A DNA stretch of 64,000 bases from an uncultured Candidatus Binatia bacterium. GTDB taxonomy: Bacteria > Desulfobacterota > Binatia > UBA9968 > JAJDTQ01. Shown piece by piece: positions 36,893-53,049 of this stretch; position 1 is the stretch's first letter, and each line of letters opens with the position of its first letter. The notes under the pieces are model-generated. The model did no database searches. It was given only the letters and a program-made list of their open reading frames with translations, and had not been told where the DNA came from. The stretch lies in NCBI GenBank assembly GCA_965213675.1, contig CBDCAF010000018.1:7840-71839 (forward strand), in the 5' to 3' direction. Position numbers and translations under genes: made by a program.

Positions 36893-39800
36893 TTGGCCAA
36901 TTCTCGCAACTTCAGCGAATATGATAAAGCAACTACAGACTTGCCCGCACCGCTTGAGAGAACGCCCTTGGAAGACGCCGCCCGACTATTACCCGAACGT
37001 TTCCCCGACGTCGGGGAACTCGTCGAAGTGCGTTCACGCCGCTGGCTGGTGGAGGCGGTGGAGTCGGAATCGGGCCGCGTCAGCCTTGCCTGCGCGGACG
37101 ACGACGCCCAAGGGCAGACCCTGGAGGTCTACTGGGAATTCGAGATCGACCGGCGCATCCTTGAGGTGGAGGCGTGGAACGCCATCGGCGCCAAGGGGTT
37201 CGACGCGCCCCGCCACTTCAGCGCGTTCCTCCACACGTTGCGCTGGAACTGCGTCACCGCCACCGACCCGAATCTCTTCCAGTCGCCGTTCCGGGCCGGC
37301 ATCAAGATCGACGCCTACCAGATGGAGCCGCTCCGCAAGGCGCTTCGGCTGCCACGGGTCAATCTGTTCATCGCGGACGATACCGGCCTCGGCAAGACCA
37401 TTGAGGCCGGTCTCATCGCGCGGGAATTGTTGCTACGCAAGAAGGTCAAGACGATGGTCGTCGCCGCGCCGGCCTCCGTGCTGGAGCAGTGGAAGGCCGA
37501 GATGGAAGAGCGTTTCGGTCTGCTGTTCGTGATCCTCGACCGCGCTTACCTCACGCAGGTCCGGCAGGAACGCGGCTTCGGCGTGAATCCCTGGCGTACC
37601 CATAGCAGGTTCCTGGTGTCCCACAACCTGCTCATTGACCCGACCTACGCCGATCCGATGCGTGAGTGGCTCGGGGCTCTTCTGCCCGGCAGCCTGCTCA
37701 TCCTCGACGAGGCCCACCATGCCGCGCCGTCGAGCGGCGGGCGTTACGGCATCGAGTCGAAGTTCACCCGGGCGGTCCGTGATGTTGGCGGCCGGTTCGA
37801 ACACCGTCTGTTTCTGTCCGCCACTCCCCACAACGGCCACTCCAACAGCTTCTCCACGCTGCTTGAGCTGCTTGATCCGTACCGTTTTACCCGCGGCGTG
37901 CCGGTGCGGGGAAAGAAGGACCTCGACGAGGTCATGGTCCGGCGCATCAAGGAAGACATCCGCGAGGTGCAGGGCGGCTTCCCCAGACGGCACGTGGAGC
38001 CGGTTCGGATCGATGGCCTGCCGGACGACGCACCGGAACTCGTTTTGTCGAGGCTCCTTGACGAATATCGCGGCTTGCGGGAGCAGCGGCTGGCCGGCGC
38101 CAGGCCGCGAGCCCAGGCCATGGCCGGTTTGCTCGTGGTGGGGCTGCAACAGAAGCTCCTGTCATCCATCGAAGCGTTCGCCATCTCGCTCGCGCGGCAT
38201 CGCAGGACGATTGAGCGACTTTGGGCGCAAGACACTGAAGACGGTCAGAACGTCCCGGATACACGGGTTGAGACCGTGGCGACCGAACCATTTCTGAAAC
38301 TGTTCGCAAAACCGCCGGACGCGGACGACGAACGCGCGGAACAGACCGACGAAGAGAACGCGGCCGAGGAAGAGGCGCAGATCACGGCCATCAACGAGAC
38401 TGCCGAGCTAGGTACCCCCACGGATGAAGGAGCAAAGGCGGCTTGGGATAAGGAGCAGGCCCTCCTGACTCGTATGCACGAAGTCGCCGATGGCGCCCGC
38501 GGCCGCCCTGACGCCAAGACCCGCCGCCTGATCGACTGGATCTACGACAACCTCTGTCCCGACCGCCCGCGCTGGAACGAACGGCGGGTGCTGATCTTCA
38601 CCGAGAACGTGATCGGCACGAAACGGTACTTGCGCGAGATGCTGGAGCAGGCCATTGCCGGCACCGACTTCGCCGAGGAGCGCATCGAGACCATTGACGG
38701 CCAGACCGCCGGCGCCAGGCGCAAGGAGATTCAACGTCGCTTCAACGCCGATCCGGCCCACGATCCGTTACGCATCCTCATTGCCACAGACGCGGCGCGC
38801 GAGGGGCTGAACTTCCAGGCGCACTGCACCGACCTGTTCCACTTCGACCTGCCCTGGAACCCTGGCCGCATCGAACAGCGCAACGGCCGCATCGACCGCA
38901 AGCTGCAACCGGCCCCGGAGGTGCGCTGCCACTACTTCGTGCTGCCGCAGCGCGCCGAGGACCGGGTACTTGAAGTGCTGGTTCGGAAGACCGCCACCAT
39001 CAGGCAGCAGCTCGGCAGTCTCTCCAAAGTGATCGATGACGAGGTGGAGCGCCGGCTGCGCGAAGGCATCCGTCACGGAGACGTGGAGCGCATCGCGCGC
39101 GACATTGAGGCGGCCGATCTCGACCGTGAAAGGCGACGAGTAGCGGCCGAGGAACTGGAAGCCGCCCGCGAACGGCAGGACGACTTGAAGGGGCAGATCG
39201 AACGATGCCGCGGGCTGCTGGACCAGTCCCGCCGCTGGGTGCAGTTCGAGGCGCAACCCTTTCGCAACGCTCTGTCCTGTTCCCTGGAGATGCTGGGTGC
39301 GGAGCCGTTGAAGGAAACACGTACCGACGATGGCGGGGTGGTCTGGACGCTGCCGCCGCTGGCGGGCAAGGCGCGGGCGGATGCAAGTTGGACCGCCACA
39401 CTGGACACGTTGCGCGCGCCGCGCAAGACCGACCAGAAGCTCGCGGAATGGCGGCAGCAGGCGCCGATTCGTCCGGTGGTGTTCGAGGATGCGGGTGTGC
39501 TCACCGACGACACCGTGCATTTGCACCTGGAACAACGCATGGCGCAACGGCTGCTGGCGCGCTTTCGCTCCCAGGGCTTCGTCTACCATGACCTGTCCCG
39601 CGCCTGTCTCGTGCAGGCCGCGGACTCCGTCCCTCGGGTGATTCTGCTGGGGCGGCTGTGTCTCTTCGGACGCCATGCCGAGCGTCTGCACGAGGAGTTG
39701 ATCCCGGTGGCGGCCCGCTGGGTCGAGCCGTCGCGCCGCAACGGGCCGCTCAGGGCCTATGCCGAGGAGGCGGAAGCACGAACGCTGGAACGCCTGGAGA

Positions 39801-40234
39801 CGGCCTTGCAGAGCGCACGAGGCCCGAACGAGACGATTCACCGCAGGCTGCGCGACATTGCCGCTCAGGATATCGAAGACCTGCTGCCGCAACTCGAAGA
39901 CCGCGCCGAGGGTGTGGCCCGGAGCGCTGGGGACAGGCTTCGCGCACGTGGCGAAAGGGAGGGACAGCAGCTTCGGGAGACCCTGGAACGTCAGCGCCGG
40001 CGAGTGGAAACGGAACTCGGCAAGCACGAGGGCCGCGGAACCCAGCTCACGCTGGAGTTCAGTGAAGCCGAGAAGCGCCAGCTTCAGGCCGACATCGCGT
40101 CGTGGCGCGTGCGTCTGGACCGGTTCGACAAGGACCTTAAGACCGAACCGGCCCGGATCCGCGAGTTCTACGAAGTGCGGGCACAACGAGTCGAGCCCAT
40201 CGGCTTGGTGTACCTGTGGCCGGACACCGGTTGA
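36893..40234 (+). CDS. drmD: SNF2-family helicase, DISARM class 1 DrmD-like
   Basis: Contains DDTGLGKTIEAG, LILDEAHHAAP, LSATPHNG, IATDAAREGLNFQ, DLPWNPGRIEQRNGRIDR. TTG start, with no earlier in-frame start. Confidence 0.8.
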   Translation: MANSRNFSEYDKATTDLPAPLERTPLEDAARLLPERFPDVGELVEVRSRRWLVEAVESESGRVSLACADDDAQGQTLEVYWEFEIDRRILEVEAWNAIGAKGFDAPRHFSAFLHTLRWNCVTATDPNLFQSPFRAGIKIDAYQMEPLRKALRLPRVNLFIADDTGLGKTIEAGLIARELLLRKKVKTMVVAAPASVLEQWKAEMEERFGLLFVILDRAYLTQVRQERGFGVNPWRTHSRFLVSHNLLIDPTYADPMREWLGALLPGSLLILDEAHHAAPSSGGRYGIESKFTRAVRDVGGRFEHRLFLSATPHNGHSNSFSTLLELLDPYRFTRGVPVRGKKDLDEVMVRRIKEDIREVQGGFPRRHVEPVRIDGLPDDAPELVLSRLLDEYRGLREQRLAGARPRAQAMAGLLVVGLQQKLLSSIEAFAISLARHRRTIERLWAQDTEDGQNVPDTRVETVATEPFLKLFAKPPDADDERAEQTDEENAAEEEAQITAINETAELGTPTDEGAKAAWDKEQALLTRMHEVADGARGRPDAKTRRLIDWIYDNLCPDRPRWNERRVLIFTENVIGTKRYLREMLEQAIAGTDFAEERIETIDGQTAGARRKEIQRRFNADPAHDPLRILIATDAAREGLNFQAHCTDLFHFDLPWNPGRIEQRNGRIDRKLQPAPEVRCHYFVLPQRAEDRVLEVLVRKTATIRQQLGSLSKVIDDEVERRLREGIRHGDVERIARDIEAADLDRERRRVAAEELEAARERQDDLKGQIERCRGLLDQSRRWVQFEAQPFRNALSCSLEMLGAEPLKETRTDDGGVVWTLPPLAGKARADASWTATLDTLRAPRKTDQKLAEWRQQAPIRPVVFEDAGVLTDDTVHLHLEQRMAQRLLARFRSQGFVYHDLSRACLVQAADSVPRVILLGRLCLFGRHAERLHEELIPVAARWVEPSRRNGPLRAYAEEAEARTLERLETALQSARGPNETIHRRLRDIAAQDIEDLLPQLEDRAEGVARSAGDRLRARGEREGQQLRETLERQRRRVETELGKHEGRGTQLTLEFSEAEKRQLQADIASWRVRLDRFDKDLKTEPARIREFYEVRAQRVEPIGLVYLWPDTG

Positions 40235-40239
40235 GACCC

Positions 40240-43200
40240 ATGCCTGCGCCCGACCCACACACCCGCGCCCATCTCGAATGGCTCGGCTTCATCCAGCCGA
40301 ACGGCCTCGTGGTCTCCGCTCCGGCCCTGGTCAAGGCTGGGGCCATCCTCAACCGGCACGATGTCGAAGGGCAGGAGTTGCTGGACGCTTGGTTGAACCA
40401 ACGCGATGGATCGCCTGCGCGCCCTCGGGAACAGTGCCTCCAGGACTTCCGCGTATTCGCGAAGACCATCCTCGGCTGGGGTTTCTCGCCCAAGGGATAC
40501 GCGGGTACGGAGGAGACCCCTATCCCGGCGGCACTTAAGGTTCCTCTCCCCGACTACGGAGAGACGCTGCGTCCGGACTTCGCGGTGTGCGAGCGCGACC
40601 CGCAGGCCGGGGAATTGCCGTGGCAGTTGCTCGTGCAGGTGCTGGAAGAGGGTGAAGGCTTCGACAGGCCGACCGCCGGCGGACTGAAAACCTCTCCGCA
40701 GGATCGAATGGAGCGCCTCCTCCGCAGCACCGGAGTTCCTGCTGGTGTGCTCTTCAACGGCGCTGCGCTACGTCTCGTCTCGGCCCCGCGCGGCGAAAGC
40801 TCCGGCTGGATGGACTTTCGTTTGGCCGACATGGCCCAGACCGCGGGGCGGCCTCTGTGCGCGGCGTTGCGCCTTCTTTTGTGTGAGCAACGCCTGTTGA
40901 CAGGGCCGAAGGAACATCGCCTGGCGGCGCTGCTCGCCGACAGCCGCCGGTATCAGAACGAGGTCAGCGAGCGGCTTTCCGAGCAGGTCATGCACGCACT
41001 CTATGACCTCCTTCGAGGGTTCCAGGCGGCCCAGGACGAATCCCGCGGAGAGCTGCTGCGGGAACCGCTCTCCGCGGAAGGCGACCCCAACGACATCTAT
41101 CGCGGCCTTCTCGCCGTCATCCTCCGCCTCGTCTTTCTGCTCTACGCCGAGGAGCGCCGCATGCTTCCGGGCGGCGAGACCTTCATCCAGCACTATTCGG
41201 TTGGCGGCCTCTACCAGCGCCTGCGCGAGGAGGCGGCCTTGCACCCGGATACCATGGATCAGCGCTACGGCGCGTGGGCGCAGCTTCTCGTGCTGTTCCG
41301 CCTTATTCACGACGGGGCGGGTGGGCACAAGACCGGAGGCAGCGTCAGCCTTCCGGAACGCCGCGGCGTTTTGTTCAACCCGGATCGGTATCCGTTCCTC
41401 GAGGGCCGTCACAGCGGCGGCGGCCGGCAGATCACCGAGCGGGTCCAGCCGCCGCTGGTCTCCGACGGCGCCGTCTACCGGGTGCTGGAGAAGCTGGTAG
41501 TCCTCGACGGCGAGCGCATTTCCTACCGCACCCTGGACGTGGAACAGATCGGGTCCGTTTACGAGGTCATCATGGGCTTCCGTCTGGAGACCGCCACCGG
41601 CCGGTCCATGTCCGTCAAGTCCGCCAAGAAGCTTGGGGCGCCGAGCACCGTCGATCTCGACGAGTTGGCGAGACAGCCCGGCGAACGTCGTGGGAAATGG
41701 CTCCAGGACCGCGTGGACCGCACCCTCACCGACACCGTCAGGAAGGGACTGCGGGCAGCCGATACGGTGGATGACCTTCACTTGGCGCTGGACCGGGTGC
41801 TGGACAAGGACGCCACGCCGGACCTCGTCACTCCCGGCTCCCTGGTGCTGCAACCCAGTGATGAGCGCCGCCGCTCGGGCTCCAACTACACGCCGCGGGA
41901 ACTCACCGAACCGATTGTCCGCCACACTCTGGAGCCCCTGCTCAATCGGCTTCGCGGCGAGGATGGACAGGCACCGTCTCCCGCCCGGATTCTCGACCTC
42001 AAGATTTGCGATCCGGCCATGGGTTCCGGCGCCTTTCTGGTGGAAACCTGTCGCCAGCTCGCGGATGCGCTCACCGAGGCATGGCACAAGCACGATGAGA
42101 CGCCGGTAATCCCGCCTGACGAAGACGAGGGGATCCATGCCCGCCGTCTGGTCGCCCAGAAGTGCCTCTACGGCATCGACCGGAATCCCATGGCTGTGGA
42201 CCTGGCCAAGACCTCGCTGTGGCTCAGCACGTTGGCGCGGGACCACCCGCTCACCTTCCTGGACCACGCGTTCCGCCATGGCGACGCCCTCGTCGGATTG
42301 ACCCGGAAACAGGCCGAGGCGTTCCACTGGATCCCGGATAGACCTCCTGAAGAGGGTTTCGAGATCATGAGGGTGCGGGAACACATGACGGAGTTGGCCG
42401 CGCTGCGCCAGCGCATCAGGGACGCGGGCGAGGATGTCTCCGATCAAGAACTGCACGACATCTGGCAAGATGCGCGCGACGAGCTTGGCGCCGTCCGGCT
42501 CTACGGCGATCTGGCGCTGGCGGCGTTCTTCGCTGAAACCAAACGGGGGCCAAGGGAAGGGAAGAGGCGCGAATTCGCCGCAGCCGCCTGGGGTGGTCAG
42601 GCCGAGCGCTACCTGGGATGGATCGGGGACCAGCGCGGCAGCGACCCGCCGCTCGCTCCTTTCCACTGGGAAATCGAGTTCCCCGAGGTGTTCGAGCGCG
42701 AGAATCCGGGGTTCGACGCGTTCGTCGGGAACCCGCCGTTCGCCGGGAAAAATAGCGTCGTCGCTGGTAACGTCGTGGGTTATCCCGACTGGCTCAAGAC
42801 CGTCCACAGAGAGAGCCACGGCAACGCCGACCTTGTAGCGCACTTCTACCGGCGTGCGTTCAACCTCCTGCGTGAAGGGGGCGCGTTCGGTCTGATTGCC
42901 ACCAACACCATCGCCCAAGGCGATACCCGTTCCACCGGACTGCGCTGGATTTGCGAGAACAACGGCTCGATCTTCCGCGCCACCAAACGGGTCAAGTGGC
43001 CCGGCGACGCGGCCGTGGTGGTCAGCGTGCTGCACGTCGCCAAGGGCGAATTTGCAGGAACCAAGGTGCTCGACGGCAGGGATGTGGAGAACATCACCGC
43101 GTTCCTCTTCCACAAGGGCGGCCACGCCGACCCGGCGCGCCTCGAAGCGAACGCCGGCAAGAGCTTCCAGGGAAGCATCGTCCTCGGAATGGGCTTCACC

Positions 43201-45390
43201 TTTGACGACACGGACAAGAAGGGCGTCGCCAACCCGCTGTCGGAGATGCAGCGGCTGATCGAAGCAGACCCGCGCAACGGCGAGCGCATCTTCCCGTACA
43301 TCGGTGGCGAGGAGGTGAACACCAGCCCGACCCACGCCCATCACCGATACGTGATCAACTTTGAGGACTTTCCGTTGCGGAGGGAGGACCTGGGAAAGCA
43401 GTGGGCGGACGCGGGGGAAGACTTGCGCCGCACATGGCTGCGGCGCGGGGTGGTCCCGCTGGACTATCCGGAGCCGGTGGCAGCGGATTGGCCGGATTTG
43501 CTGGCGATTGTGGATGAGCGAGTGAGGCCGGAGCGAAGCAAGCTCACGAAGAATCCCATCGGTCGAAAGCGAGCGGAGTTCTGGTGGCGTTACGGCTCGA
43601 CGGCAAACGAACTCTACGCCGCCAGCGCCAGTCAGCCTCGAGTTTTGGTGATTTCGAGATACGGACAAGTTGCTGCATTCACGTTCTTGCCCGCCGGCGC
43701 TGTCTATAGCGATTCATGCATCATATTCCCGGTCGACACCTATGCCGCCCTGTGCGTCCTCCAGTCCCGCCCCCACGAGATCTGGGTGCGCTTCTTTGGC
43801 TCGTCGATGAAGGACGACCTCCGCTACACGCCATCCGACTGCTTCGAGACTTTCGCTTTTCCTGATGATTGGGCAACGGCCACGGCGCTGGAGGCCGCAG
43901 GCAAGGCGTATTTTGAGCACCGAGTGACGCTGATGCTCTGTAACGGTGAGGGTCTGACCAGAACCTTAAACCGCTTTCATGACCCCTACGATGGCAATCC
44001 GAATATCATCCGTCTCCGAGAACTCCACGCCGCCATGGACCGCGCCGTCCTCGACGCCTACGGCTGGACCGACATCCCCACCGACTGTGATTTCCTCCTC
44101 GACTACGAAATCGACGAGGCTACTTGGGGCGTGAAGAAAAAGCCGTACCGCTATCGCTGGCCCGACAAAATTTGCGACGAAGTCCTTGCTCGCCTTCTCG
44201 CCCTCAATGTTGAGCGTTCCGAAGAGGAAGCCCGTGCACGGCTGGTGCAGAAGCCGGTCCGAAAGAAACGCCATCGCGTCCTGATGGTGGCAGAACAACC
44301 TCCTCTCTGGGATCGTCCAATGACTGACCAGACTCCACAGCGGTTCACGCCGTTGGTGAAGCGCTCTCGTCCCAAGCCTTCGACGATCTATCCGGTTCTC
44401 TGGAAATTTGCGTGTGAGCGCCAGCGGGTCTATCTACGGCGCGTCGCAGGCGACCCAAGCCCGTGGACTACGGACACTGTGCTGTCAGAATACAAGTTCA
44501 CGAATGCCTTCAGAGCCGCTGACAGGGTGAGTCAGTACCTGATTCAGTTGATCTATTCTGATGCTAAGGCCAGCGGCGCCAACGTGTTTCTGAGAGCCCT
44601 TTTATTCAAGGTCTTCAACAAGATCGAGACGTGGGACAGGGTCGTTAACGGACTCGGCATGCCTGTCGCTCACGAGTTCGACTACGCGGCGTGCGACGAT
44701 TTGCTTGTCAATCTTCGTCGGCAGGGGGCGCCGATTTACTCCGCCGCTTACATCATGCCATCGGGAGGACGAGTCGGGATGCCGAAGCACCGGATGCATC
44801 TCGAACTGATTCGCAGAATGCTTGATGAACGCCTTCCGGAGAAGCTGCAGGAGTCGAAGTCGCTGGCTGAAGCCTACGAGATGGTTCTTTTGTATCCCAC
44901 GTTGGGACCCTTTCTCGCTTTCCAGTACGTTATCGACCTAAATTATTCGACCCTGATGAACCACTCGGAACAGAGATTCGTGGTTGCCGGCCCCGGCGCC
45001 TTGGATGGACTGTCCAAGTGCTTCGAGTCGCTTGGGGAGTATGATCCGGCCGACGCCATCCTATGGTTGTCCGACATCCAAGCGGACGAGTTCGCGCGGT
45101 ATGGACTCGAATTCGGGGGTCTATGGGGACGCCCGCTTCAGCCGATCGATGTCCAGAATCTGTTCTGTGAGGTCTCGAAGTACACTCGGGTGACACATCC
45201 AGAGATAAGAGGCCTGACCAAGCGTAAACGCATCAAGCAAAGATTTGCGATGACAGGGCCGCTCGCCAAGCCCTTCTTCCCGCCCAAATGGGGCTTGAAT
45301 CAACGAATTGACGAGTGGCTCCCGCGCCGAACGGGTGCAACTCTCGAACAACGCGAGCTTTTCTTCCCAACCCCAGCCAGGCCTACGTGA
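40240..45390 (+). CDS. drmMI: N6-adenine DNA methyltransferase (Eco57I/type IIG-like), DISARM DrmMI-like, fused to an extra C-terminal domain of about 356 aa (from 44320)
   Basis: SAM motif ICDPAMGSGAFLVE and catalytic FVGNPPFAGKN. ATG lies 5 nt after the drmD stop. The C-terminal part has no methylase motifs: LWKFACERQRVYLRR...PWTTDTVLSEYKFTNAFRAADRVSQYL. Confidence 0.8.
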   Translation: MPAPDPHTRAHLEWLGFIQPNGLVVSAPALVKAGAILNRHDVEGQELLDAWLNQRDGSPARPREQCLQDFRVFAKTILGWGFSPKGYAGTEETPIPAALKVPLPDYGETLRPDFAVCERDPQAGELPWQLLVQVLEEGEGFDRPTAGGLKTSPQDRMERLLRSTGVPAGVLFNGAALRLVSAPRGESSGWMDFRLADMAQTAGRPLCAALRLLLCEQRLLTGPKEHRLAALLADSRRYQNEVSERLSEQVMHALYDLLRGFQAAQDESRGELLREPLSAEGDPNDIYRGLLAVILRLVFLLYAEERRMLPGGETFIQHYSVGGLYQRLREEAALHPDTMDQRYGAWAQLLVLFRLIHDGAGGHKTGGSVSLPERRGVLFNPDRYPFLEGRHSGGGRQITERVQPPLVSDGAVYRVLEKLVVLDGERISYRTLDVEQIGSVYEVIMGFRLETATGRSMSVKSAKKLGAPSTVDLDELARQPGERRGKWLQDRVDRTLTDTVRKGLRAADTVDDLHLALDRVLDKDATPDLVTPGSLVLQPSDERRRSGSNYTPRELTEPIVRHTLEPLLNRLRGEDGQAPSPARILDLKICDPAMGSGAFLVETCRQLADALTEAWHKHDETPVIPPDEDEGIHARRLVAQKCLYGIDRNPMAVDLAKTSLWLSTLARDHPLTFLDHAFRHGDALVGLTRKQAEAFHWIPDRPPEEGFEIMRVREHMTELAALRQRIRDAGEDVSDQELHDIWQDARDELGAVRLYGDLALAAFFAETKRGPREGKRREFAAAAWGGQAERYLGWIGDQRGSDPPLAPFHWEIEFPEVFERENPGFDAFVGNPPFAGKNSVVAGNVVGYPDWLKTVHRESHGNADLVAHFYRRAFNLLREGGAFGLIATNTIAQGDTRSTGLRWICENNGSIFRATKRVKWPGDAAVVVSVLHVAKGEFAGTKVLDGRDVENITAFLFHKGGHADPARLEANAGKSFQGSIVLGMGFTFDDTDKKGVANPLSEMQRLIEADPRNGERIFPYIGGEEVNTSPTHAHHRYVINFEDFPLRREDLGKQWADAGEDLRRTWLRRGVVPLDYPEPVAADWPDLLAIVDERVRPERSKLTKNPIGRKRAEFWWRYGSTANELYAASASQPRVLVISRYGQVAAFTFLPAGAVYSDSCIIFPVDTYAALCVLQSRPHEIWVRFFGSSMKDDLRYTPSDCFETFAFPDDWATATALEAAGKAYFEHRVTLMLCNGEGLTRTLNRFHDPYDGNPNIIRLRELHAAMDRAVLDAYGWTDIPTDCDFLLDYEIDEATWGVKKKPYRYRWPDKICDEVLARLLALNVERSEEEARARLVQKPVRKKRHRVLMVAEQPPLWDRPMTDQTPQRFTPLVKRSRPKPSTIYPVLWKFACERQRVYLRRVAGDPSPWTTDTVLSEYKFTNAFRAADRVSQYLIQLIYSDAKASGANVFLRALLFKVFNKIETWDRVVNGLGMPVAHEFDYAACDDLLVNLRRQGAPIYSAAYIMPSGGRVGMPKHRMHLELIRRMLDERLPEKLQESKSLAEAYEMVLLYPTLGPFLAFQYVIDLNYSTLMNHSEQRFVVAGPGALDGLSKCFESLGEYDPADAILWLSDIQADEFARYGLEFGGLWGRPLQPIDVQNLFCEVSKYTRVTHPEIRGLTKRKRIKQRFAMTGPLAKPFFPPKWGLNQRIDEWLPRRTGATLEQRELFFPTPARPT

Positions 45391-46462
45391 TTTCGCGGTA
45401 AAGAAGTTGCCGTTGATTCATGTCGAGCGTTACGTGTCCTCCCTCGTGTTCCCGGAGAGACCTGAACACGCGATATCCTTTGAGAATGGCGGTTTCCCAC
45501 CGCCATAGGGGAAGTTTGGCGACCTCGAAGCCTTGTATGAACTCCTTTACGGCCTTGAGCAGGTCATAGTCGACCTGGTCGATATTGTCGTAGTAGTTCA
45601 TTTTCTTTGCCCGGCTGAATACAATGGCGGATACGGCCTCTTCGATAATTCTCGCCCGCGCACCGTCCTCGTTCTCGTCCACCAGTGGATCGCTCTTCCG
45701 CTTGCACTTCAGTAGGTGTCTTATGACAGGTGACCATCCGAGGTACACGGCGTAAGCGAAATGGAAAACATCGTGAAACCGGTAGAAGTCAGGCTGTCCG
45801 ATATTGTCCGTCAGGCGATCCCCGAAGTTCAGTCCGTTACACCGGAGTATGGCCGTCACCTTGCTGTCCCGCTGGACTTGGCGAAAGTCGATATCGAGTT
45901 TACGTGGGAGCTGTTCCTCTTCCGGGAAGCCCTCATCGAAGAAAGGTGGGACGACATACCTCTCGGGCCATCGGCTCTGCGTCTTTTCCTGGTTCGTTCG
46001 CGCGGCCTCGTAGAGGTCGACGCCGGCGCCTTCCGCAACGTGAAATAGGGCGTCCCAGGTTGGCCCAAGCCTTCCGGAATCCATTCGGTCACGGTTTTGC
46101 ACTGCACTGAGTAATTCGCCCGCCGCAACCCCGAGGGCCACTCCATCCCCCAAGGGTCCTGGGCTTCGCCCCGATAGGGCCTGCGCTCGCTTGTTCGCAC
46201 GGTTCAGTGCCGACGGATCAAGAATGGCGGAGAGGCGCGCCAAGTACCAAAGACAATCTCCGATTTCTTCGACGAGCCGCTTACGGTATGCGGGATAGGC
46301 GTCGGTTTCACGTTGTTCCTTTTTCAATTCGGCGAGAACACTCCCCGCTTCACCGAAAAGACCTGCCGCAAGGATGAGGGCGTGGTTCGGTTTGTCGACG
46401 AGTTGATCCGTTCGCTTTGCAGACTTGGCGTATTCAATGAGCCAAGACATCGGCTTTCTCAT
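45383..46462 (-). CDS. MazG-like (all-alpha NTP pyrophosphohydrolase) domain protein with a C-terminal extension
   Basis: Contains LAAGLFGEAGSVLAELKKEQRE...RLVEEIGDCLWYLARLS. C-terminal region has FGDRLTDNIGQPDFYRFHDVFHFAYAVYLGWSPV. The stop overlaps the drmMI 3' end by 8 nt. Confidence 0.65.
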   Translation of the reverse strand: MRKPMSWLIEYAKSAKRTDQLVDKPNHALILAAGLFGEAGSVLAELKKEQRETDAYPAYRKRLVEEIGDCLWYLARLSAILDPSALNRANKRAQALSGRSPGPLGDGVALGVAAGELLSAVQNRDRMDSGRLGPTWDALFHVAEGAGVDLYEAARTNQEKTQSRWPERYVVPPFFDEGFPEEEQLPRKLDIDFRQVQRDSKVTAILRCNGLNFGDRLTDNIGQPDFYRFHDVFHFAYAVYLGWSPVIRHLLKCKRKSDPLVDENEDGARARIIEEAVSAIVFSRAKKMNYYDNIDQVDYDLLKAVKEFIQGFEVAKLPLWRWETAILKGYRVFRSLREHEGGHVTLDMNQRQLLYREIT

Positions 46463-47228
46463 GTGCTTCCTTCAAGGAACGGAGATCGTCGAGCAGTTTC
46501 TGTAGCCGTCTTTCCGACCCCTCAAGGGTGGCATAAGACGAGTGGACCACCAGGGTGCCCATGTCCTGCCCGGTCTCTTTGGCGACACAATCCTGGAGGC
46601 GGGCCAAACCAAGCAGGTTGCCTGGTACCTTGTATCGGTAGTCATGGCTCCGGTAGAATGCTGTCAGGTGGACCGCACCAACGAAGAGCTTGAACGAAAG
46701 GTGGGAGAGACAAGGATCGCCCCGTCGGCGTTTACCGTCTTTCACCGTGTTGTAGAGGGGCATGTCGTATTCCCCTTCGGCGACATTAATGTCGTAACGG
46801 GATTTCATGGTTCCCTTGGTCGAAAGCTCCTTCTTCATATTGTCTATCATCTCCTTCAAGGGGTTCATGTCCGTGCCATCGGCTGTCTTTCGTCGAACCA
46901 GCCGATAGGCGTAGGTGTCCCAAAGGATCTTTGGATGCCGCTTGATCGCCGGAAAGGTCTTATCGGGGTAGTCGTCGTAGACGCCCTTCAGTCCCCGCCT
47001 GCGATATTCTGACAAGGGAAAGATCGTTTCGGCCACCGAGTGAATCGGTAGTTGGTTTTCGCCCATAAAGAAGTCATCGAGTTTTTGCTCTGCGGCCTTG
47101 GGATAGCCCCTCTTTCCCGGTTCTCCGATCTCCAGCACAAGGTTCAGCATGGGACCGTTGGACAACAGGAACTCGGCGGCGTCAACCCAGGCATCCATCC
47201 AGGCAGCGGTCTGGATCAATTTTGCCAT
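46434..47228 (-). CDS. Thymidylate synthase-fold (ThyA / pyrimidine hydroxymethylase-like) protein
   Basis: GDPCLSHLSFKLFVGAVHLTAFYRSHDYRYKVPGNLLGLARLQDCVAKETG aligns with E. coli ThyA [56 protein letters not shown] RBS. Confidence 0.65.
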   Translation of the reverse strand: MAKLIQTAAWMDAWVDAAEFLLSNGPMLNLVLEIGEPGKRGYPKAAEQKLDDFFMGENQLPIHSVAETIFPLSEYRRRGLKGVYDDYPDKTFPAIKRHPKILWDTYAYRLVRRKTADGTDMNPLKEMIDNMKKELSTKGTMKSRYDINVAEGEYDMPLYNTVKDGKRRRGDPCLSHLSFKLFVGAVHLTAFYRSHDYRYKVPGNLLGLARLQDCVAKETGQDMGTLVVHSSYATLEGSERRLQKLLDDLRSLKEAHEKADVLAH

Positions 47229-47857
47229 CACGTCACCTCCTCCGTGAGGGCCAGTAGGTCGCGTAGATGACGGGCGAGGAAGGCGTCGTCGAGCCATGCA
47301 TGGCCGTTGTCACCCCATTCGGCACCCCAGCTATTCCTGACCAGGAAGCACCGCGATGTATCGGCGGTCCCCAAACCGACCGCTACGACTGCGTGAAGAC
47401 CTCGGATCGGGCCGTCGTGCGAGATTAACCAAAGAGGTGTAGGCGACAAAAAGTCGTCTGGTATGGAAATGCCGAGAACAGGCGTTTGCCCAGCGTTTAG
47501 CAGGGTTTCGACCTCATCTGCGGTAGCATCCTTCTGAACGCTCTTGCGTGGGTACAGTCGCACGCCTGCCGGTGGCATCCAGCCGAGAGGCAAACCGTCG
47601 GGATAGTAGGGGCAGTCTGCTTCCGCGGGCTGCCCAGGGTCTTGCAGGGCACGAGATGTCTCCAGGAATGCTGCGCCATCCGTCGGATTGTGGACCGACG
47701 CAAAGTAGTGGAGATACTCCGGCGAGAGCGCCATCTTGGAGCCGCGCACGCGTTCGTGTGCGCTCGTGCAGGCAAATGATAGACATGTGGGCCGGGCGCC
47801 CTGGTCCCGAATCGGGCCGAGGCTTTGCCGGTGGTCGACGAGAACGGTGATGTTCAT
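47228..47857 (-). CDS. Papain-family (C1) cysteine peptidase without a signal peptide
   Basis: Contains IRDQGARPTCLSFA (Gln/Cys), GLHAVVAVGLG (His), VRNSWGAEWGDNGHAWL (Asn). Its ATG overlaps the upstream stop (ATGA). Confidence 0.75.
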   Translation of the reverse strand: MNITVLVDHRQSLGPIRDQGARPTCLSFACTSAHERVRGSKMALSPEYLHYFASVHNPTDGAAFLETSRALQDPGQPAEADCPYYPDGLPLGWMPPAGVRLYPRKSVQKDATADEVETLLNAGQTPVLGISIPDDFLSPTPLWLISHDGPIRGLHAVVAVGLGTADTSRCFLVRNSWGAEWGDNGHAWLDDAFLARHLRDLLALTEEVT

Positions 47858-48837
47858 GCTGCATTTGCCAGTGCGTCGAGTTTGGCTTTTCTCGGGAAGC
47901 CGCCGGATTCCTTTCCATGAGCATCGATTTTGATCGCGATATGGTCGAGTGTCGCGCCGCTCCATGGGCGGGCGTGTTCAAAGGCGAGTCGATGTGTGCC
48001 AGGAGTATTGAAACGGACATACACGACACGGGCTGAAGGCCGTCCATAGACTCTGTCCGAGTCTGCTGTGTGCTCTGCGATGACCTCGGAGCTGGCTCCG
48101 GTGTCGATGAGCCTCCAGATGTAGCCGGCGGAAACGTTGTCCTCCAGATGGACTGCGAAGAGATCGTCGGGTCCGGCTTCGAGAAACGTGTCGGTGTCAC
48201 CACAGGTCAAAGCCCAGACGTCGGCCCAGGAGTTCGTGATCAGTTCTGCGGGTGCCAACGCCCGCTTCAGTTCCTTGACCGGCGTCGCTTCGAGTTGTTT
48301 GGCTTCCGCGCGCGTAAGGACCTTGGACGTTACCAAACCCCAGCATGCGGCTTGGTAGCTGATGCCCAAGCGAAGGGAAAGTTGGTAGATGTTGCGCGGT
48401 TGATGCAGCTCTTGCCTTTTCCAGCCATGGCGTGTGGCGGATTCTACCATGAGCTGTTTTGATGCCAGCAGCTCCGAGGCAAAGGTGTCAGCGGCCACCT
48501 CCTCAATCGCACGTGACCCTGAAGCGTGACGTCCCGCGAACCCAACGGTTTTATCCAGGCTTGACTCATGCCCCAGCACCCAGTGTCCGAGCTCGTGGGC
48601 CAGTGTAAACCGCTGAACGGCCAGTCCCATGCGACTCGTAACGATGATGCCTCGGGCACCCTTGCCAGCGGGAACAACGGCGCCCCAAAGATGATCCAGC
48701 GGCCGAAAGACGAGGGGGATGTCCCGCGTGGTGATCGCGCTGACAATGTCGAAACTGGTGCGGTCACTCTTGGCAGTTGAGGCGAGAATCTTGGCTGCTT
48801 CTCTGACGGCTCGCAAAGTCTCGTTACGTCTGTTCAT
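47854..48837 (-). CDS. ImmA/IrrE-type Zn metallopeptidase domain fused to a chagasin-like (I42) cysteine-peptidase inhibitor domain
   Basis: HEXXH motif LAHELGHWVLGH. The C-terminus FAVHLEDNVSAGYIWRL...PGTHRLAFEHARPWSGA matches chagasin NPTTGFAW...AGTHAVNLTYMRPWTGP. Confidence 0.75.
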   Translation of the reverse strand: MNRRNETLRAVREAAKILASTAKSDRTSFDIVSAITTRDIPLVFRPLDHLWGAVVPAGKGARGIIVTSRMGLAVQRFTLAHELGHWVLGHESSLDKTVGFAGRHASGSRAIEEVAADTFASELLASKQLMVESATRHGWKRQELHQPRNIYQLSLRLGISYQAACWGLVTSKVLTRAEAKQLEATPVKELKRALAPAELITNSWADVWALTCGDTDTFLEAGPDDLFAVHLEDNVSAGYIWRLIDTGASSEVIAEHTADSDRVYGRPSARVVYVRFNTPGTHRLAFEHARPWSGATLDHIAIKIDAHGKESGGFPRKAKLDALANAA

Positions 48838-49186
48838 CCGGTTTCCTCGACCGCAGGAATTGGGCGAAACGAAGAACCTCCTCCCGGTCGGTCACCGACA
48901 GTTCAGCGGTCGCCCGTGCTACCAGTCGTACCGACTCCGGCTCCGGGCTCTCCAGATCGGGTCCGGTGAGGCTCTCCATGTTGGTCTGATAGAGCGTGGC
49001 AAGGCGCTGAAGTTCCAATGCATCGACACGTCGCGCCCGATTCTCCATGAGTGAAATGGCGGATCTGGGAAGGCCGAGATGTGCGGCAACCTCTTCCTGG
49101 GTGAACCCGCAGTATTCCCGCGCCTCCTTTAGCCGCGTGCTCAGGGTGCCACGCTTGGCTGGCTGGCCGTGATTATCGTCGTTCAT
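48824..49186 (-). CDS. XRE-family helix-turn-helix transcriptional regulator
   Basis: Contains LKEAREYCGFTQEEVAAHLGLPRSAISLMENRARRV. 14-nt overlap with the ImmA-like gene. Confidence 0.85.
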   Translation of the reverse strand: MNDDNHGQPAKRGTLSTRLKEAREYCGFTQEEVAAHLGLPRSAISLMENRARRVDALELQRLATLYQTNMESLTGPDLESPEPESVRLVARATAELSVTDREEVLRFAQFLRSRKPDEQT

Positions 49187-49220: not shown

Positions 49221-49616
49221 TCAGGAGATCTTTCTCATCATTTCGGGTACAAGATGATCGATCATGTCGTCGATGCTCTGGTAACCTCCAGGACGAATCA
49301 GCCGAACGTCAATGGGGCGACCTAGGTATCGCTGAAAAATCGGAGAGCTGCGGGCCACAGCCTTTGAGTCCAACTCAGGCATGGAATCCCACAGGTCGGA
49401 GTTGCTCCTGTCACTGACCATTCCGTTACGACTCGCTTCCACTTGTAAATCCCAGTCTCCCATCTCCTGACTCGCCCATTCCCTGAGTTCTTTTCTCAAG
49501 AGGGCCTCCTTGTTCGGCCCACGGCCCCTCACGGTCCTCAGCGTGGAGGTATCCCAGAACGAAAGGGGAATCTGGGATGAAGATTTAGGGGCTTGGGTAG
49601 GGATTTTGTGTTCCAT
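49221..49616 (-). CDS. Hypothetical protein; the C-terminal half resembles a phosphopantetheine carrier domain
   Basis: ELDSKAVARSSPIFQRYLGRPIDVRLI..GYQSIDDMIDHLV resembles the PCP/ACP pattern GxDS[LK]xAV...F...L...SI..L..HL. Located 34 nt downstream of the PPTase gene. Confidence 0.45.
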   Translation of the reverse strand: MEHKIPTQAPKSSSQIPLSFWDTSTLRTVRGRGPNKEALLRKELREWASQEMGDWDLQVEASRNGMVSDRSNSDLWDSMPELDSKAVARSSPIFQRYLGRPIDVRLIRPGGYQSIDDMIDHLVPEMMRKIS

Positions 49617-49650
49617 AACGGAACAAGATTAGCACCGTAATGTTCGAAAG

Positions 49651-50322
49651 TCAAACATTGCGTTGGGGCAATTCCGGCTGTTGTGACAACAAGGCAACTG
49701 AGCCCACCCAGGGACGGACGGCGGTGGTGCAGCAAACCTCTACAGCGATTCGGTCGAAATGAGCAACGCCGTTCATCATCCCTTGTGGCGCAACTTCCTT
49801 CCACGAGAGTCGTACGTTGTCGTAGCCGAATCGGACACCAAGAACAGGGTTCAAAGCCTTGAAAACGGCTTCCTTCACCGACAGTAGGATCACCGAGCCT
49901 GCAACACCCCAGTCCAGAGGCAACTCGTCGGACGCGATCAGTCCTTTGATTGACAGGAGTTCCCGACCGCGGTCCAGAGTCTCGATGTCGATGCCGACGG
50001 ACCTCACGTGACTGATCCGAGATAGCCCAGCCACAACTTTGGTGCCTTTATGGCTCACGCTCCCCGTGTAACCCGGTGGCCAGTCTCGGGCGCCGGAGGC
50101 GAGGTGCCCTGGCTCATTGGCAGACAGCCCAGCACTCTCCAGCAGATTGGTCAGACAGGTCGCCGTGGCCTTCCGTCTCGCGCGTTCCACGACGGGGACA
50201 CGTTCAGCGGACAGGACGTCCTGAGGGCCTGGTAGCCAATGCGCAAAAGAACCGCCCCTGATGCTCACTTCAGGTGCCAAGCGTTTGAGTTCGTCAACGA
50301 GGGGGTCACGTTGCAGATACAT
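49651..50322 (-). CDS. 4'-phosphopantetheinyl transferase (EntD/Sfp-type)
   Basis: Trimmed to MYLQRDPLVDEL. Contains WPPGYTGSVSHKG, VGIDIE, LSVKEAVFKAL. Confidence 0.75.
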   Translation of the reverse strand: MYLQRDPLVDELKRLAPEVSIRGGSFAHWLPGPQDVLSAERVPVVERARRKATATCLTNLLESAGLSANEPGHLASGARDWPPGYTGSVSHKGTKVVAGLSRISHVRSVGIDIETLDRGRELLSIKGLIASDELPLDWGVAGSVILLSVKEAVFKALNPVLGVRFGYDNVRLSWKEVAPQGMMNGVAHFDRIAVEVCCTTAVRPWVGSVALLSQQPELPQRNV

Positions 50323-50504
50323 GGTTTGATTTTTGCCGTTTACGGGTCTGCGTGGGGTCGATATCGGTTGGGTGCCGTGACGACGGCTGGCTTCTCGTTG
50401 TCTCCCGTGCCCCAGTTCTTCCGCTTGGGGCATATCGTCTCATCGGGTAACCTATTCTATAGGCCGCCGGTTCCGTGGGCGAGCCCCCATTGGACGCGAT
50501 CCTG

Positions 50505-50903
50505 ATGGAAGCCAAACTCAAGCACCTTGAATTTATCCAGGGCGTAGTGAATCGCCTAGCGTCTGACTCCTTCCGAATGAAGGGCTGGGCGGTGGCCTTG
50601 GTTGCTGCGTTCTTTGTCCTGTTGGCAAGGGAAGGACGGATCGAATTTGCCCCGATAGCCGTGGTTCCCGTGCTTGTCTTCTGGGGACTCGACGGCTACT
50701 TCCTGTGGCAGGAACGTCTCTTCCGTGCCCTGTACGATCACGTTCGGCGTGTGAGTGAAGTCGACATTGACTTCTCCATGGATGTCGGCCCGTTTCGAAT
50801 GGGCTGGCGACGAACTTGGTTGGGCGCAACATTCTCGAAAACGCTGATCTTCTTCTACGGCGCGTTGACCATCGCTGTCGGCTTGGTGACGTGCATCTAC
50901 TGA
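50505..50903 (+). CDS. Small integral membrane protein (about 3 TM helices)
   Basis: Contains GWAVALVAAFFVLLA, IAVVPVLVFWGLDGYFLW, LIFFYGALTIAVGLVTCIY. An alternative GTG start is at 50475. Confidence 0.6.
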   Translation: MEAKLKHLEFIQGVVNRLASDSFRMKGWAVALVAAFFVLLAREGRIEFAPIAVVPVLVFWGLDGYFLWQERLFRALYDHVRRVSEVDIDFSMDVGPFRMGWRRTWLGATFSKTLIFFYGALTIAVGLVTCIY

Positions 50904-50922
50904 CCGCGAGGAGACACATCCA

Positions 50923-51420
50923 ATGACACGCAGGGTGTTCTACAGCTTTCACTACAACGCCGACAACTGGCGAGCTGCCATGGTGCGCAATATCGGCAGT
51001 ATCGAAGGGAGCAGCCCCGCATCGGACAACGACTGGGAGGCCGTGAAGAGGGGCGGGGAAGCAGCGATCAGGAAATGGATCGCCAACCAAATGCAATACC
51101 GCTCCTGTACAGTCGTACTGGTCGGGTCGAATACTGCGAACCGCAAGTGGATCAACCACGAAATCGTCAAGTCGTGGGATGACGGTATGGGTGTGATAGG
51201 GATCCACATTCACGGGCTGAAGGATGCCGACGGCAATACGTCAGCCCGAGGAGCCAATCCGTTTGACTTCATCACGCTTGGAGATTCTGCGAAGCGGCTA
51301 TCATCCATAGTGAGGTGTTGTGTTCCCGGCGGCAGCAATAGTCAGGAGAAATATGCCTGGATCTCGAAGCACCTCGCGAATGCAGTAGAAGAAGCCATAA
51401 AAATACGAAACAATAATTGA
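50923..51420 (+). CDS. ThsB-like TIR domain protein (DUF1863 / MTH538 TIR-like)
   Basis: Contains RVFYSFHYNADNWRAAMVRN, CTVVLVGSNTANRKWINHEI, GVIGIHIHGL. Confidence 0.7.
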   Translation: MTRRVFYSFHYNADNWRAAMVRNIGSIEGSSPASDNDWEAVKRGGEAAIRKWIANQMQYRSCTVVLVGSNTANRKWINHEIVKSWDDGMGVIGIHIHGLKDADGNTSARGANPFDFITLGDSAKRLSSIVRCCVPGGSNSQEKYAWISKHLANAVEEAIKIRNNN

Positions 51421-52673: not shown

Positions 52674-52698
52674 GGGAAGGTGTCAAGGAGGCGTGTTC

Positions 52699-53049
52699 AT
52701 GCCGCGCAACACATCGGTTTCTCTCGGGTATCACTTCATCGGTTTCATCGACGAGCGTGTGCAGTCCGGTCGTTACAACTCGGCAAGCGATGTGGTGCGC
52801 GCCGGGCTGCGGCTGTTGGAAGAGCACGAAGCCAAGGTTGAGGCTCTGAGGGAAGCCCTCATCGAAGGCGAGCAATCCGGTCCGGCGACACCGTTTGACT
52901 TCGACGCGTTCATTACCCGCAAGAAGACTACTCAGGACGGTCAAGAGGGCCGTCCTGAGACCCAGTCCGAGTTTGCCAGCCAAGACCGCTACCCGGCCGG
53001 CCATGAAACGGGACGCCTGAACCGAGACGACATTGACGAAGGCGGTTAG
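52699..53049 (+). CDS. parD: ParD-family (RHH) antitoxin-like protein with an atypical C-terminal tail of about 35 aa
   Basis: Contains MPRNTSVSLGYHFIGFIDERVQSGRYNSASDVVRAGLRLLEEHEAKVEALREALIEGEQSGPATPFDFDAF. Confidence 0.8.
   Translation: MPRNTSVSLGYHFIGFIDERVQSGRYNSASDVVRAGLRLLEEHEAKVEALREALIEGEQSGPATPFDFDAFITRKKTTQDGQEGRPETQSEFASQDRYPAGHETGRLNRDDIDEGG

Follow-up and report, generated by a model that had tools for sequence, protein, structure and literature searches.

Within a 64,000-nucleotide stretch of DNA from an uncultured Candidatus Binatia bacterium (GCA_965213675.1, contig CBDCAF010000018.1, positions 7,840 to 71,839; this whole stretch is referred to here as the window), we describe a gene cassette organized around a divergent, 'ThyA-like' protein with the thymidylate synthase (TS) fold, named TSL here. 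TSL and the adjoining MazG-MazG_C protein are encoded at the distal end of a translationally coupled operon, and do not form a stand-alone pair. The combined evidence suggests with good confidence that this is a conflict or defence cassette acting on uracil or thymine nucleotides or bases, and it is probably a mobile, inducible anti-phage unit inserted in a class 1 DISARM locus. A preliminary description of the same DNA, made from its letters alone, had identified the two minus-strand open reading frames (ORFs) at their correct coordinates, and motifs that are all present in them; it missed a carrier-like protein, a phosphopantetheinyl-transferase-like gene, a repressor, a metallopeptidase fused to a chagasin-type inhibitor, a papain-like peptidase and, in related loci, an arm comprising a uracil-DNA glycosylase (UDG)-like protein and DUF4031. 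The genes of the cassette in the window are as follows.

44320-45390, plus strand: HMUDK_hel (PF18723), convergent on the MazG gene and in frame with DrmMI (ORF 40216-45390)
45383-46462, minus strand: MazG plus MazG_C (PF18722 E 1.8e-78; PF03819 23.9 bits)
46434-47228, minus strand: TSL, 264 amino acids (aa) from an internal ATG; TS fold by Foldseek, PF00303 match below threshold
47228-47857, minus strand: papain-family C1 cysteine peptidase, 209 aa (Pfam Peptidase_C1 E 6.8e-10)
47854-48837, minus strand: ImmA/IrrE (M78) metallopeptidase with a C-terminal chagasin-family I42 inhibitor domain (Pfam, PADLOC)
48824-49186, minus strand: XRE-family helix-turn-helix (HTH) repressor, CapH/ImmR-like (HTH_31 E 1.7e-10; PADLOC capH E 1.1e-11)
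49221-49616, minus strand: c5, a small protein resembling acyl or peptidyl carrier proteins (ACP/PCP), 131 aa, first gene of the operon
49651-50433, minus strand: PPT, 4'-phosphopantetheinyl transferase (PPTase)-like, immediately upstream of the operon; weak Pfam and NCBIfam matches

The operon thus reads c5, XRE repressor, ImmA-I42, C1 peptidase, TSL and MazG-MazG_C, with PPT upstream and HMUDK_hel convergent upon its distal end. The repressor stop codon overlaps the ImmA start (ATGA), the C1 peptidase gene overlaps ImmA by ATGA and TSL by TGATG, and MazG-MazG_C begins within TSL, sharing its last 17-29 nt; an overlap of about 22 nt at this last junction recurs in five loci of the comparative set described below (L002, L003, L005, L009 and L011). 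The minus-strand ORF enclosing TSL spans 46434-47297 (287 codons). We place the gene at 46434-47228 because its homologues are 260-264 aa long, and because the internal ATG at 47228 is preceded by a GGAGGTG ribosome-binding site and has one base in common with the upstream stop codon (TGATG). The MazG-MazG_C ORF comprises 359 codons; translation probably begins at 46450, where the sequence 'MSWL' agrees with homologues. Scans for promoters and terminators did no better than chance, and a search for operator-like inverted repeats found none. A TTGACT-17 nt-TAATCT element at 49617-49654 was too weak for the promoter scan to report; it extends across the PPT stop codon to a point 9 nt upstream of the c5 ATG and would give a nearly leaderless transcript. 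The genes of the cassette are currently annotated 'hypothetical protein'.

Sequence models recognize TSL only weakly. Its match to PF00303 (E 5e-5, 23.0 bits) falls below the cut-off of 24.3, and against the NCBIfam TS models it scores 14-39 bits with cut-offs of 108-427; the best of these matches, to the short archaeal-type TS model TIGR03283 (E 5e-10), is far below its cut-off. Searching the PDB by sequence returned weak ThyA matches (E 0.05-0.26) confined to the 60-residue catalytic core, and identity to ThyA is approximately 15%. An AlphaFold2 (AF2) model built from 31 homologues (predicted local distance difference test, pLDDT, 83; predicted template-modelling score, pTM, 0.86) was matched by Foldseek with probability 1.0 (E 1e-10 to 1e-11, template-modelling (TM) score 0.5-0.66, identity 13-18%), about equally to thymidylate synthases, the CMP hydroxymethylase MilA, the phage FAD-dependent dCMP hydroxylase AfhB and T4-type dCMP hydroxymethylases. 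ThyA, T4 gp42, MilA and AfhB have in common with TSL the fold, the nucleophilic Cys, one of the phosphate-binding Arg residues and the position of the Asn that reads the base, and by these scores TSL is roughly equidistant from all four. Foldseek gave no specific similarity to phage enzymes. By its modelled structure, TSL is a separate branch of the TS fold, near no characterized subfamily, and not a ThyA.

The residues that read and activate the base are nonetheless recognizable. Hidden Markov model (HMM) and hhalign alignments equate TSL C173, R193, S194, D196 and N204 with E. coli ThyA C146, R166, S167, D169 and N177, respectively; the hhalign comparison, made with five TS sequences (four of them provisional), aligned only residues 117-228. 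These positions lie within DPCLSH (46701-46718), FYRSHD (46641-46658) and VPGN (46617-46628). Across 73 family members at 33-77% identity, C173 is retained in 73, R193 and N204 in 72 each and S194 in 54, and the strand PCLSHLSFK (C173, S175, H176, S178, K180) is invariant or nearly so, as are W14, F70-P71, Y106, R109 and the glycine of G203-N204. Y106 and R109 belong to a WGTYAxR motif that lies beyond the reach of the hhalign and PDB alignments; visual inspection matches it to the region of ThyA Y94. The TS fold, Cys nucleophile and uracil-type Asn of the preliminary description are hence well supported. The YxRSxD motif it quoted is present in the window copy, which has D196, and does not hold for the family, where the Asp position is occupied by Tyr (27), Asp (16), His (13), Phe (7) or Trp (7). 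Judged from these alignments, the machinery for C6 attack and C5 activation of a uracil ring appears intact, and the Asn at position 204, in place of Asp, would favour uracil over cytosine. Besides the PCLSHLSFK strand, features specific to TSL are a conserved insert at residues 149-172 and a short C-terminus.

The second protein of the distal pair was described earlier as a MazG-type NTPase. That assignment is correct for its N-terminal part of approximately 165 aa, which scores above the 22-bit cut-off of PF03819, contains EEIGDCLWYL (46241-46270), and has acidic metal-binding residues (E38, E45, E66, D69) that are invariant in 32 homologues; the gene as a whole encodes MazG plus MazG_C, and is not a simple MazG. 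The nearest structures to the MazG domain in Foldseek are dimeric all-alpha dUTPases (probability 0.9-0.99), and by sequence it is nearest, weakly, to DCTPP1/RS21-C6 (E 0.2). The C-terminal 190 aa match MazG_C at 262.9 bits over 185 of 190 model positions, with dense conservation, high charge and the motifs RCNGLNFGDRLTDNI, FHDxFH and CKRKS..DE.DGARA. Foldseek of the MazG-MazG_C model returned no PDB fold match for MazG_C, which others have termed a predicted nucleotide kinase (PMC13092281).

The plus-strand ORF that converges on MazG-MazG_C is 1724 aa long and joins DrmMI to HMUDK_hel, the latter at aa 1391-1665 (Pfam E 8e-93). PF18723 HMUDK_hel was formerly named aGPT-Pplase1. In L002, L003 and L007, a methyltransferase ends just ahead of a separate HMUDK_hel gene, the start of which corresponds to an 'MTD' Met equivalent to window position 44320. 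Because it is a separate gene in these relatives, we assign HMUDK_hel to the cassette and not to DISARM. The window ORF may be a real fusion; alternatively, a stop codon may have been lost, with HMUDK_hel translated from an internal start codon at 44320.

To catalogue related loci, an alignment-based scan was run over one genome per species, yielding 80 loci, and two annotated plasmid loci were added, for a set of 82; the TSL sequence alone, used as a query against genomes, had found no relatives. Genes were counted over this set by tblastn and ORF clustering. The loci derive from Acidobacteriota, Binatia, Thermodesulfobacteriota, Planctomycetota, Myxococcota, Bdellovibrionota, Verrucomicrobiota, Nitrospinota, Chloroflexota, Actinomycetota, Spirochaetota and Alpha-, Beta- and Gammaproteobacteria, and from one archaeal (Haloarcula) plasmid. 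Beside TSL, a C1 peptidase is found in 74 loci, ImmA in 71, an XRE repressor in 69, a motif-bearing c5-like ORF at the same position in approximately 70, MazG_C in 65, HMUDK_hel in 45 and a UDG-like gene in 29. HMUDK_hel and the UDG-like gene never occur together, and 74 loci have one of them; the eight with neither include short or truncated contigs (e.g. L004, L019, L022). The recurrence of HMUDK_hel beside TSL, and its fusion to MazG and MazG_C within one 742-aa ORF of L026 (8488-10716, minus strand) that joins both arms of the cassette, bear out the functional link to a hypermodification-like domain proposed in the preliminary description. P0307 (674 aa) and P0338 (303 aa), with M78/TSL/MazG/MazG_C fragments, are probably degraded or mis-called and were dropped as evidence of fusion. 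The UDG-like protein (c6, 223 aa) has no match in Pfam, NCBIfam or the PDB, so its label rests on RefSeq annotation (uracil-DNA glycosylase) and on DefensePredictor figure legends; it occurs with DUF4031 in 23 of its 29 loci.

The remaining genes vary in an equally structured manner. PPT is present in 29 loci, 24 of them with a detected HMUDK_hel, and an ACPS-type PPTase in six more (35/82 in total), and PPTase-like genes are never found in UDG-like loci. Seven loci (L019, L025, L031, L033, L035, L037 and L050) have a second, more canonical TS of approximately 340 aa (PF00303 E 8.5e-18) beside HMUDK_hel, often with a dCTP-deaminase-like gene, which accompanies 11 of the 82 TSL loci; MazG_C and this second TS, of the type found in the E. 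coli system DS-4, are together in none. The archaeal copy of the cassette, on Haloarcula marina plasmid NZ_CP100410.1 (L081, 183-7807), comprises genes for an Mrr_cat endonuclease, dTMP kinase, HMUDK_hel, PPTase, c5-like protein, HTH, ImmA-I42, C1 peptidase and a TSL that is 43% identical to that of the window. No MazG domain was detected in it, and the dTMP kinase (Tmk) gene adjoins HMUDK_hel. Three minimal loci (L039, L041, L044) contain only c5, TSL and HMUDK_hel, and in loci of type B the MazG arm is a convergent operon. These patterns of linkage and mutual exclusion point to three functional slots. The first is a regulated core (c5-HTH-ImmA/I42-C1-TSL). The second, a nucleotide-pool arm, is filled by MazG-MazG_C, by the second TS with or without dCTP deaminase, or by Tmk, and the third, a DNA-level arm, by HMUDK_hel or by the UDG-like protein with DUF4031.

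Several observations point to mobility. TSL is on 24 plasmid records, 14 of them conjugative, and integrases flank some of its loci. The family comprises 1216 clusters (50% identity) at E<=1e-3 and 633 at E<=1e-10, and was not found in 50,697 phage records, which gave only weak matches to true phage TS genes. A scan of viral contigs with MazG-MazG_C returned only two loci, both on IMG/VR contigs: L084, classed as viral, carries HTH, ImmA, TSL, HMUDK_hel and MazG-MazG_C, and L083 carries MazG-MazG_C and a UDG-like gene without TSL, showing that this arm can stand alone.

The promoter-proximal genes resemble a regulatory switch. As in CapH/CapP, IrrE/DdrO and ImmR/ImmA (Lau et al. 2022; PMC13228613), an XRE repressor gene followed by an M78 peptidase gene heads the operon. 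In ImmA-I42, Peptidase_M78 (E 1e-9) covers aa 61-165 and Inhibitor_I42 (E 3e-10) aa 224-302. Of 57 homologues, 50-57 retain the HExxH motif (H81/E82/H85), E113, and the G238/W241 and P291-W292 residues typical of chagasin. The PADLOC capP model matches the peptidase part only (E 7e-16, model positions 8-146 of 242); the chagasin-type domain stands where CapP has a GAF domain that binds single-stranded DNA (ssDNA), and the repressor is preceded by the carrier-like gene. In CapH/CapP-type switches, ssDNA activates the peptidase through that GAF domain and the immune operon is de-repressed (PMC13228613). By sequence, the switch of the cassette thus appears to be of the CapH/CapP type but not to include a CapP orthologue. 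The C1 peptidase retains Q19, C25, H155, N175 and W177 in 61-62 of 62 homologues and lacks an extension of pro-domain length, 18 residues preceding Gln19. An intact C1 peptidase beside an I42 domain is also the arrangement of chagasin-papain pairs; here the inhibitor is fused to a metallopeptidase, and the pair is inside an operon of nucleotide enzymes. TSL, MazG-MazG_C and the C1 peptidase are not covered by any PADLOC model.

At the head of the operon, c5 has a Ser84 that is invariant in a 28-sequence alignment. A PDB profile search with c5 returned mostly acyl and peptidyl carrier proteins, with weak scores (best E 0.015), and in these alignments Ser84 falls on the 'DS' Ser to which phosphopantetheine is attached in ACP/PCP. 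Pfam PP-binding (PF00550) matches three of the 28 members (E 0.005), the window c5 not among them. PPT itself matches Pfam ACPS and 4PPT_N below their cut-offs (E 4e-4 and 7e-4) and NCBIfam PptT at E 2.5e-6, and its homologue on the Haloarcula plasmid is annotated in RefSeq as belonging to the 4'-PPTase superfamily. Because of the Ser84 alignment and the PPTase-like gene adjoining in 35 of the loci, the most economical reading is that c5 is probably a carrier protein.

The closest tested relative of the cassette is the E. coli system DS-4 ('NTTI'), which DeWeirdt, Mahoney and Laub validated (Science 2026; DefensePredictor, PMC13092281). DS-4 encodes a TS and a dNMP kinase of the adenylate-kinase-like type, together with HMUDK_hel (termed a 'putative DNA base hypermodification protein' there), a TIR protein and Nmad2, and reduces plaquing by phages including lambda; its mechanism was not studied (PMC13092281). 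Both systems combine a TS-family enzyme, a nucleotide kinase (in the cassette, a predicted one) and a stand-alone HMUDK_hel in a defence operon (in the cassette, a probable one). The window HMUDK_hel is homologous to that of DS-4 (WP_087900470.1; 24% identity over 251 aa, E 2e-25), as is the second TS of the seven TSL loci to the DS-4 TS (E 9e-26), whereas no pairwise similarity of TSL itself to the latter was detected (BLASTP E 1.1). A DS-4-type TS, P-loop dNMP kinase, TIR and Nmad2 were not found in the scanned HMUDK_hel ORF, TSL, MazG-MazG_C, C1, ImmA, HTH and PPT proteins; conversely, DS-4 is without the carrier-like protein, ImmA-chagasin fusion, papain-like peptidase and MazG-MazG_C. Two further sets, MazG/MazG-C/UDG/NMAD and MazG-C/dUTPase/aGPT-Pplase, are predicted and unvalidated systems (DefensePredictor Fig. 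6F, S12; PMC13092281, which cites Burroughs et al. 2015 for them), and appear to equal the MazG-MazG_C plus UDG-like (with or without DUF4031) and the MazG_C plus HMUDK_hel arms found beside TSL. A literature search whose scope did not extend to Burroughs et al. 2015 and Iyer et al. 2013, the likely original accounts of MazG_C and aGPT-Pplase contexts, found no mention of TSL or of the part with the C1 peptidase, chagasin and carrier; an earlier bioinformatic mention is possible.

Phage thymidine hypermodification uses the same types of part: a dUMP-acting TS homologue, a dNMP kinase, a dTTP/dUTP hydrolase and a 5-HMUDK/aGPT-Pplase-type module (Lee et al. 2018, PMC5889632; Lee et al. 2021, PMC8989533). 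In that route a TS homologue makes 5-hydroxymethyl-dUMP (5-hmdUMP), dNMP and host kinases raise it to the triphosphate, and a dTTPase removes the competitor; at the DNA level a P-loop 5-hydroxymethyldeoxyuridine (5-hmdU) DNA kinase and clade-2 aGPT-Pplases, which are amino-acid:DNA transferases, elaborate the base (PMC8989533). The cassette has analogues of the first three parts and neither the P-loop 5-hmdU DNA kinase nor the clade-2 transferase. It is also cellular, repressed and mobile, whereas the phage pathway is part of a phage replication module.

The window cassette lies within a class 1 DISARM locus at 36893-59447 (PADLOC E from 2.8e-303 to 2.7e-80). GC content falls from approximately 0.66 to approximately 0.56 between 43 and 53 kb, and an island at approximately 44.3-53.8 kb, between DrmMI and DrmA, splits DISARM and holds the TSL cassette, a PDC-M50A/ThsB-like TIR pair and a HEC-01A ATPase. 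Its surroundings are as follows.

36893-40234: DrmD (PADLOC)
40216-45390, plus strand: ORF with DrmMI at aa 15-1354 (PADLOC)
50475-51420, plus strand: PDC-M50A (142 aa, E 1.7e-45), then ThsB-like TIR (165 aa, E 3e-67 / 1.5e-62; the TIR also corresponds to PDC-M50B)
51417-52673, plus strand: HEC-01A-type AAA/ABC ATPase (PADLOC E 7e-150), an embedded defence candidate
53821-57621: DrmA (PADLOC)
57531-59447: DrmB (PADLOC)

By their matches, PDC-M50A and the ThsB-like TIR are a candidate defence pair in the same island, and the TIR was assigned to this pair and not to the TSL operon. A 118-aa ORF follows at 52693-53049 (plus strand), the N-terminus of which presumably resembles a ParD/CopG-type antitoxin. 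Embedding in DISARM is a published predictor of defence function (10.1101/2024.01.29.577857), and this setting, together with the protection of E. coli by the related DS-4 (PMC13092281), upholds the defence context suggested in the preliminary description.

We infer a specific pathway from these parts, which we put forward tentatively, as possible though somewhat short of probable. The XRE repressor would keep the operon off until infection or DNA damage sets the ImmA/IrrE-type peptidase to work, a step modelled on CapH/CapP, IrrE/DdrO and ImmR/ImmA. Through its Cys, Asn, Arg and Tyr, TSL would attack C6 and activate C5 of a uracil nucleotide, giving a C5-substituted (hydroxymethyl-type) or trapped uracil nucleotide, and not dTMP. 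The MazG domain would hydrolyse a competing canonical pyrimidine dNTP (dUTP or dTTP), and MazG_C, in place of the dNMP kinase or Tmk of sister systems, would re-phosphorylate the altered nucleotide towards the triphosphate. The altered base would then enter replicating DNA, where HMUDK_hel or the UDG-like enzyme would process it and phage replication would be blocked. The papain-like peptidase, presumably inhibited by chagasin until induction, could be a second latch or a proteolytic effector. This parts list parallels that of the 5-hmdU pathway in phages, namely a dUMP hydroxymethylase, a dNMP kinase and a dTTPase (PMC8989533).

A number of findings weigh against this pathway. In the HMM and hhalign alignments, no equivalents of the second-subunit arginines R126'/R127' or of the 3'-OH ligands H207/Y209 were detected in TSL, and the positions aligned to them are variable in the family; the N-terminus could not be aligned reliably to R21, and by eye no Arg is evident there; the D169 equivalent, as described above, is unconserved. 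In addition, the TSL model has a single helix after its last strand instead of the long C-terminal segment of ThyA, a segment that closes over the folate. The sugar-phosphate and cofactor sites of TSL thus appear, from its sequence, to differ from those of ThyA, and neither a ThyA-type sugar-phosphate in its substrate nor a folate cofactor can be assumed. Taken with the failed ThyA and TS thresholds, this reduces the 'dUMP hydroxymethylase' label of the preliminary description to a guess. The window copy also departs from its family at G104D and E146D, positions that are Gly and Glu, respectively, in 71 of 73 homologues. (P0001, its closest relative, has the E146D change only.) A Pfam scan of the 1724-aa ORF found only HMUDK_hel and no P-loop kinase domain, and no scanned gene of the cassette matched a P-loop 5-hmdU DNA kinase or a clade-2 aGPT-Pplase. 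HMUDK_hel is not the clade-2 aGPT-Pplase for which amino-acid:DNA transfer was demonstrated, and the aGPT-Pplase pathway label of the preliminary description is not established. The 'kinase' label of MazG_C, which has no structural match, derives from the prediction of others and from gene displacement. MazG-MazG_C homologues number at least 3600, against 705 for TSL, and the module occurs without TSL too. The trigger may differ from that of CapP, because chagasin replaces the ssDNA-binding GAF domain. Finally, the pathway could run without the papain-like peptidase or the carrier-like protein, although the latter is near-universal.

Other explanations account for parts of these data. The cassette could be a counter-measure against phages with hypermodified thymidine, one that makes no base and instead destroys 5-hmdU-type nucleotides or DNA: MazG would hydrolyse a modified dNTP, TSL would bind the C5 substituent on the monophosphate or reverse its addition, and HMUDK_hel or the UDG-like protein would read the modified base, complementing a DISARM that hypermodified phages could evade. 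All modules are indeed specific to uracil or its derivatives (the TSL Asn, the dUTPase-like MazG, HMUDK_hel, the UDG-like protein), HMUDK_hel is in frame with DrmMI in the window, and an Mrr-type endonuclease domain, from a family that includes modification-dependent enzymes, is beside the module on the Haloarcula plasmid. Anti-modified-DNA defences are, moreover, embedded in BREX and other systems (10.1101/2024.01.29.577857). We nevertheless consider this role unlikely: DS-4 acts on lambda, whose DNA has no hmU, a DISARM methyltransferase adjoins only seven of the 82 loci, a kinase-type partner (Tmk, dNMP kinase, predicted MazG_C) fits a synthetic better than a degradative route, and the carrier-like protein and peptidase are left unexplained. 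Those same methyltransferase counts make it extremely improbable that the cassette hypermodifies thymidine in host DNA as a self-marking arm of DISARM, as the in-frame DrmMI-HMUDK_hel ORF and the position between DrmMI and DrmA might suggest, since most loci have no DISARM genes; the operon is under a repressor/peptidase switch and is not constitutive, the UDG-like alternative would attack such marks, and HMUDK_hel is a separate gene in relatives. Abortive infection through pyrimidine starvation or uracil poisoning, an arrest of the 'thymineless death' type with no new base, we regard as distinctly unlikely. Here MazG would deplete dTTP or another dNTP, TSL would trap dUMP or otherwise block the supply of thymidylate, and the UDG-like protein or HMUDK_hel would process uracil-rich DNA. 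Defences that deplete dNTPs are an established class (dCTP deaminase and dGTPase defence enzymes), and the dCTP-deaminase-like gene of 11 loci, the UDG-like arm of 29, the lack of conserved folate-site residues in TSL, and the predicted tight repression and double latch, as expected of a toxic effector, are all in keeping with it. The family-wide invariant Cys/Asn/Tyr set, however, argues for turnover chemistry over mere binding, kinase partners are unneeded for depletion, and HMUDK_hel has no known role on plain uracil. The alternative given in the preliminary description, an abortive-infection pair corrupting or depleting dNTPs, agrees with the data, which do not separate it from the first reading made there.

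Two independent systems might also be co-located in defence islands, one comprising c5-HTH-ImmA-C1-TSL with the peptidase or TSL as effector, and the other MazG-MazG_C with HMUDK_hel or with the UDG-like protein and DUF4031. This would agree with L083, with the larger size of the MazG-MazG_C family, with the convergent MazG operon of type B loci, and with the DefensePredictor prediction of the two MazG-C sets as systems of their own. It is very unlikely given that MazG-MazG_C of the window type overlaps TSL in one operon, and that HMUDK_hel or the UDG-like gene lies within a few kb in 74 of the 82 TSL loci across many phyla and one archaeon, beyond what is expected of ordinary island neighbours. 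A long shot, which gives the carrier and the peptidase a part, is that TSL, or HMUDK_hel with a kinase, makes an electrophilic C5-methylene on uracil or 5-hydroxymethyluracil, and that the pantetheine thiol of the carrier traps it; the resulting thioether adduct with nucleotide or DNA would block phage replication, and the papain-like peptidase, freed from chagasin, would process or resolve adducts or be the executioner. If true, this would be a defence chemistry without known precedent. An ordinary housekeeping thymidylate synthase with a house-cleaning MazG has next to no chance of being right and was rejected: TSL does have the TS fold and the Cys/Arg/Asn core, but its scores are below the Pfam and NCBIfam thresholds at approximately 15% identity to ThyA, several canonical ThyA binding residues are not detectably kept, and its setting is a low-GC island or plasmids, including an archaeal one, with peptidase and regulator genes as neighbours.

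The cassette therefore appears, by analogy with DS-4, to fall within nucleotide-modification-type defence, with several components new to immunity. Defences based on nucleotide-modifying enzymes have only recently been shown to work (DS-4, 2026), and the TSL cassette, with loci from more than ten bacterial phyla, one archaeal plasmid and conjugative plasmids, is a second and much more widespread entry point to them. The new components comprise a TS-fold clade with an apparently intact uracil-activating core, a putatively cytoplasmic papain-type peptidase predicted to be held by an ImmA-fused chagasin, and a probable carrier protein with its own PPTase-like gene. Their natural variation is itself informative, HMUDK_hel and the UDG-like protein being mutually exclusive, and MazG_C alternating with a second TS and, on one plasmid, with Tmk. 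Overall, study of this cassette could bring to light a TS-fold reaction and a cellular use of modified pyrimidines against phages that are both new, and could explain the control of a toxic pathway by a double latch of proteolytic type.

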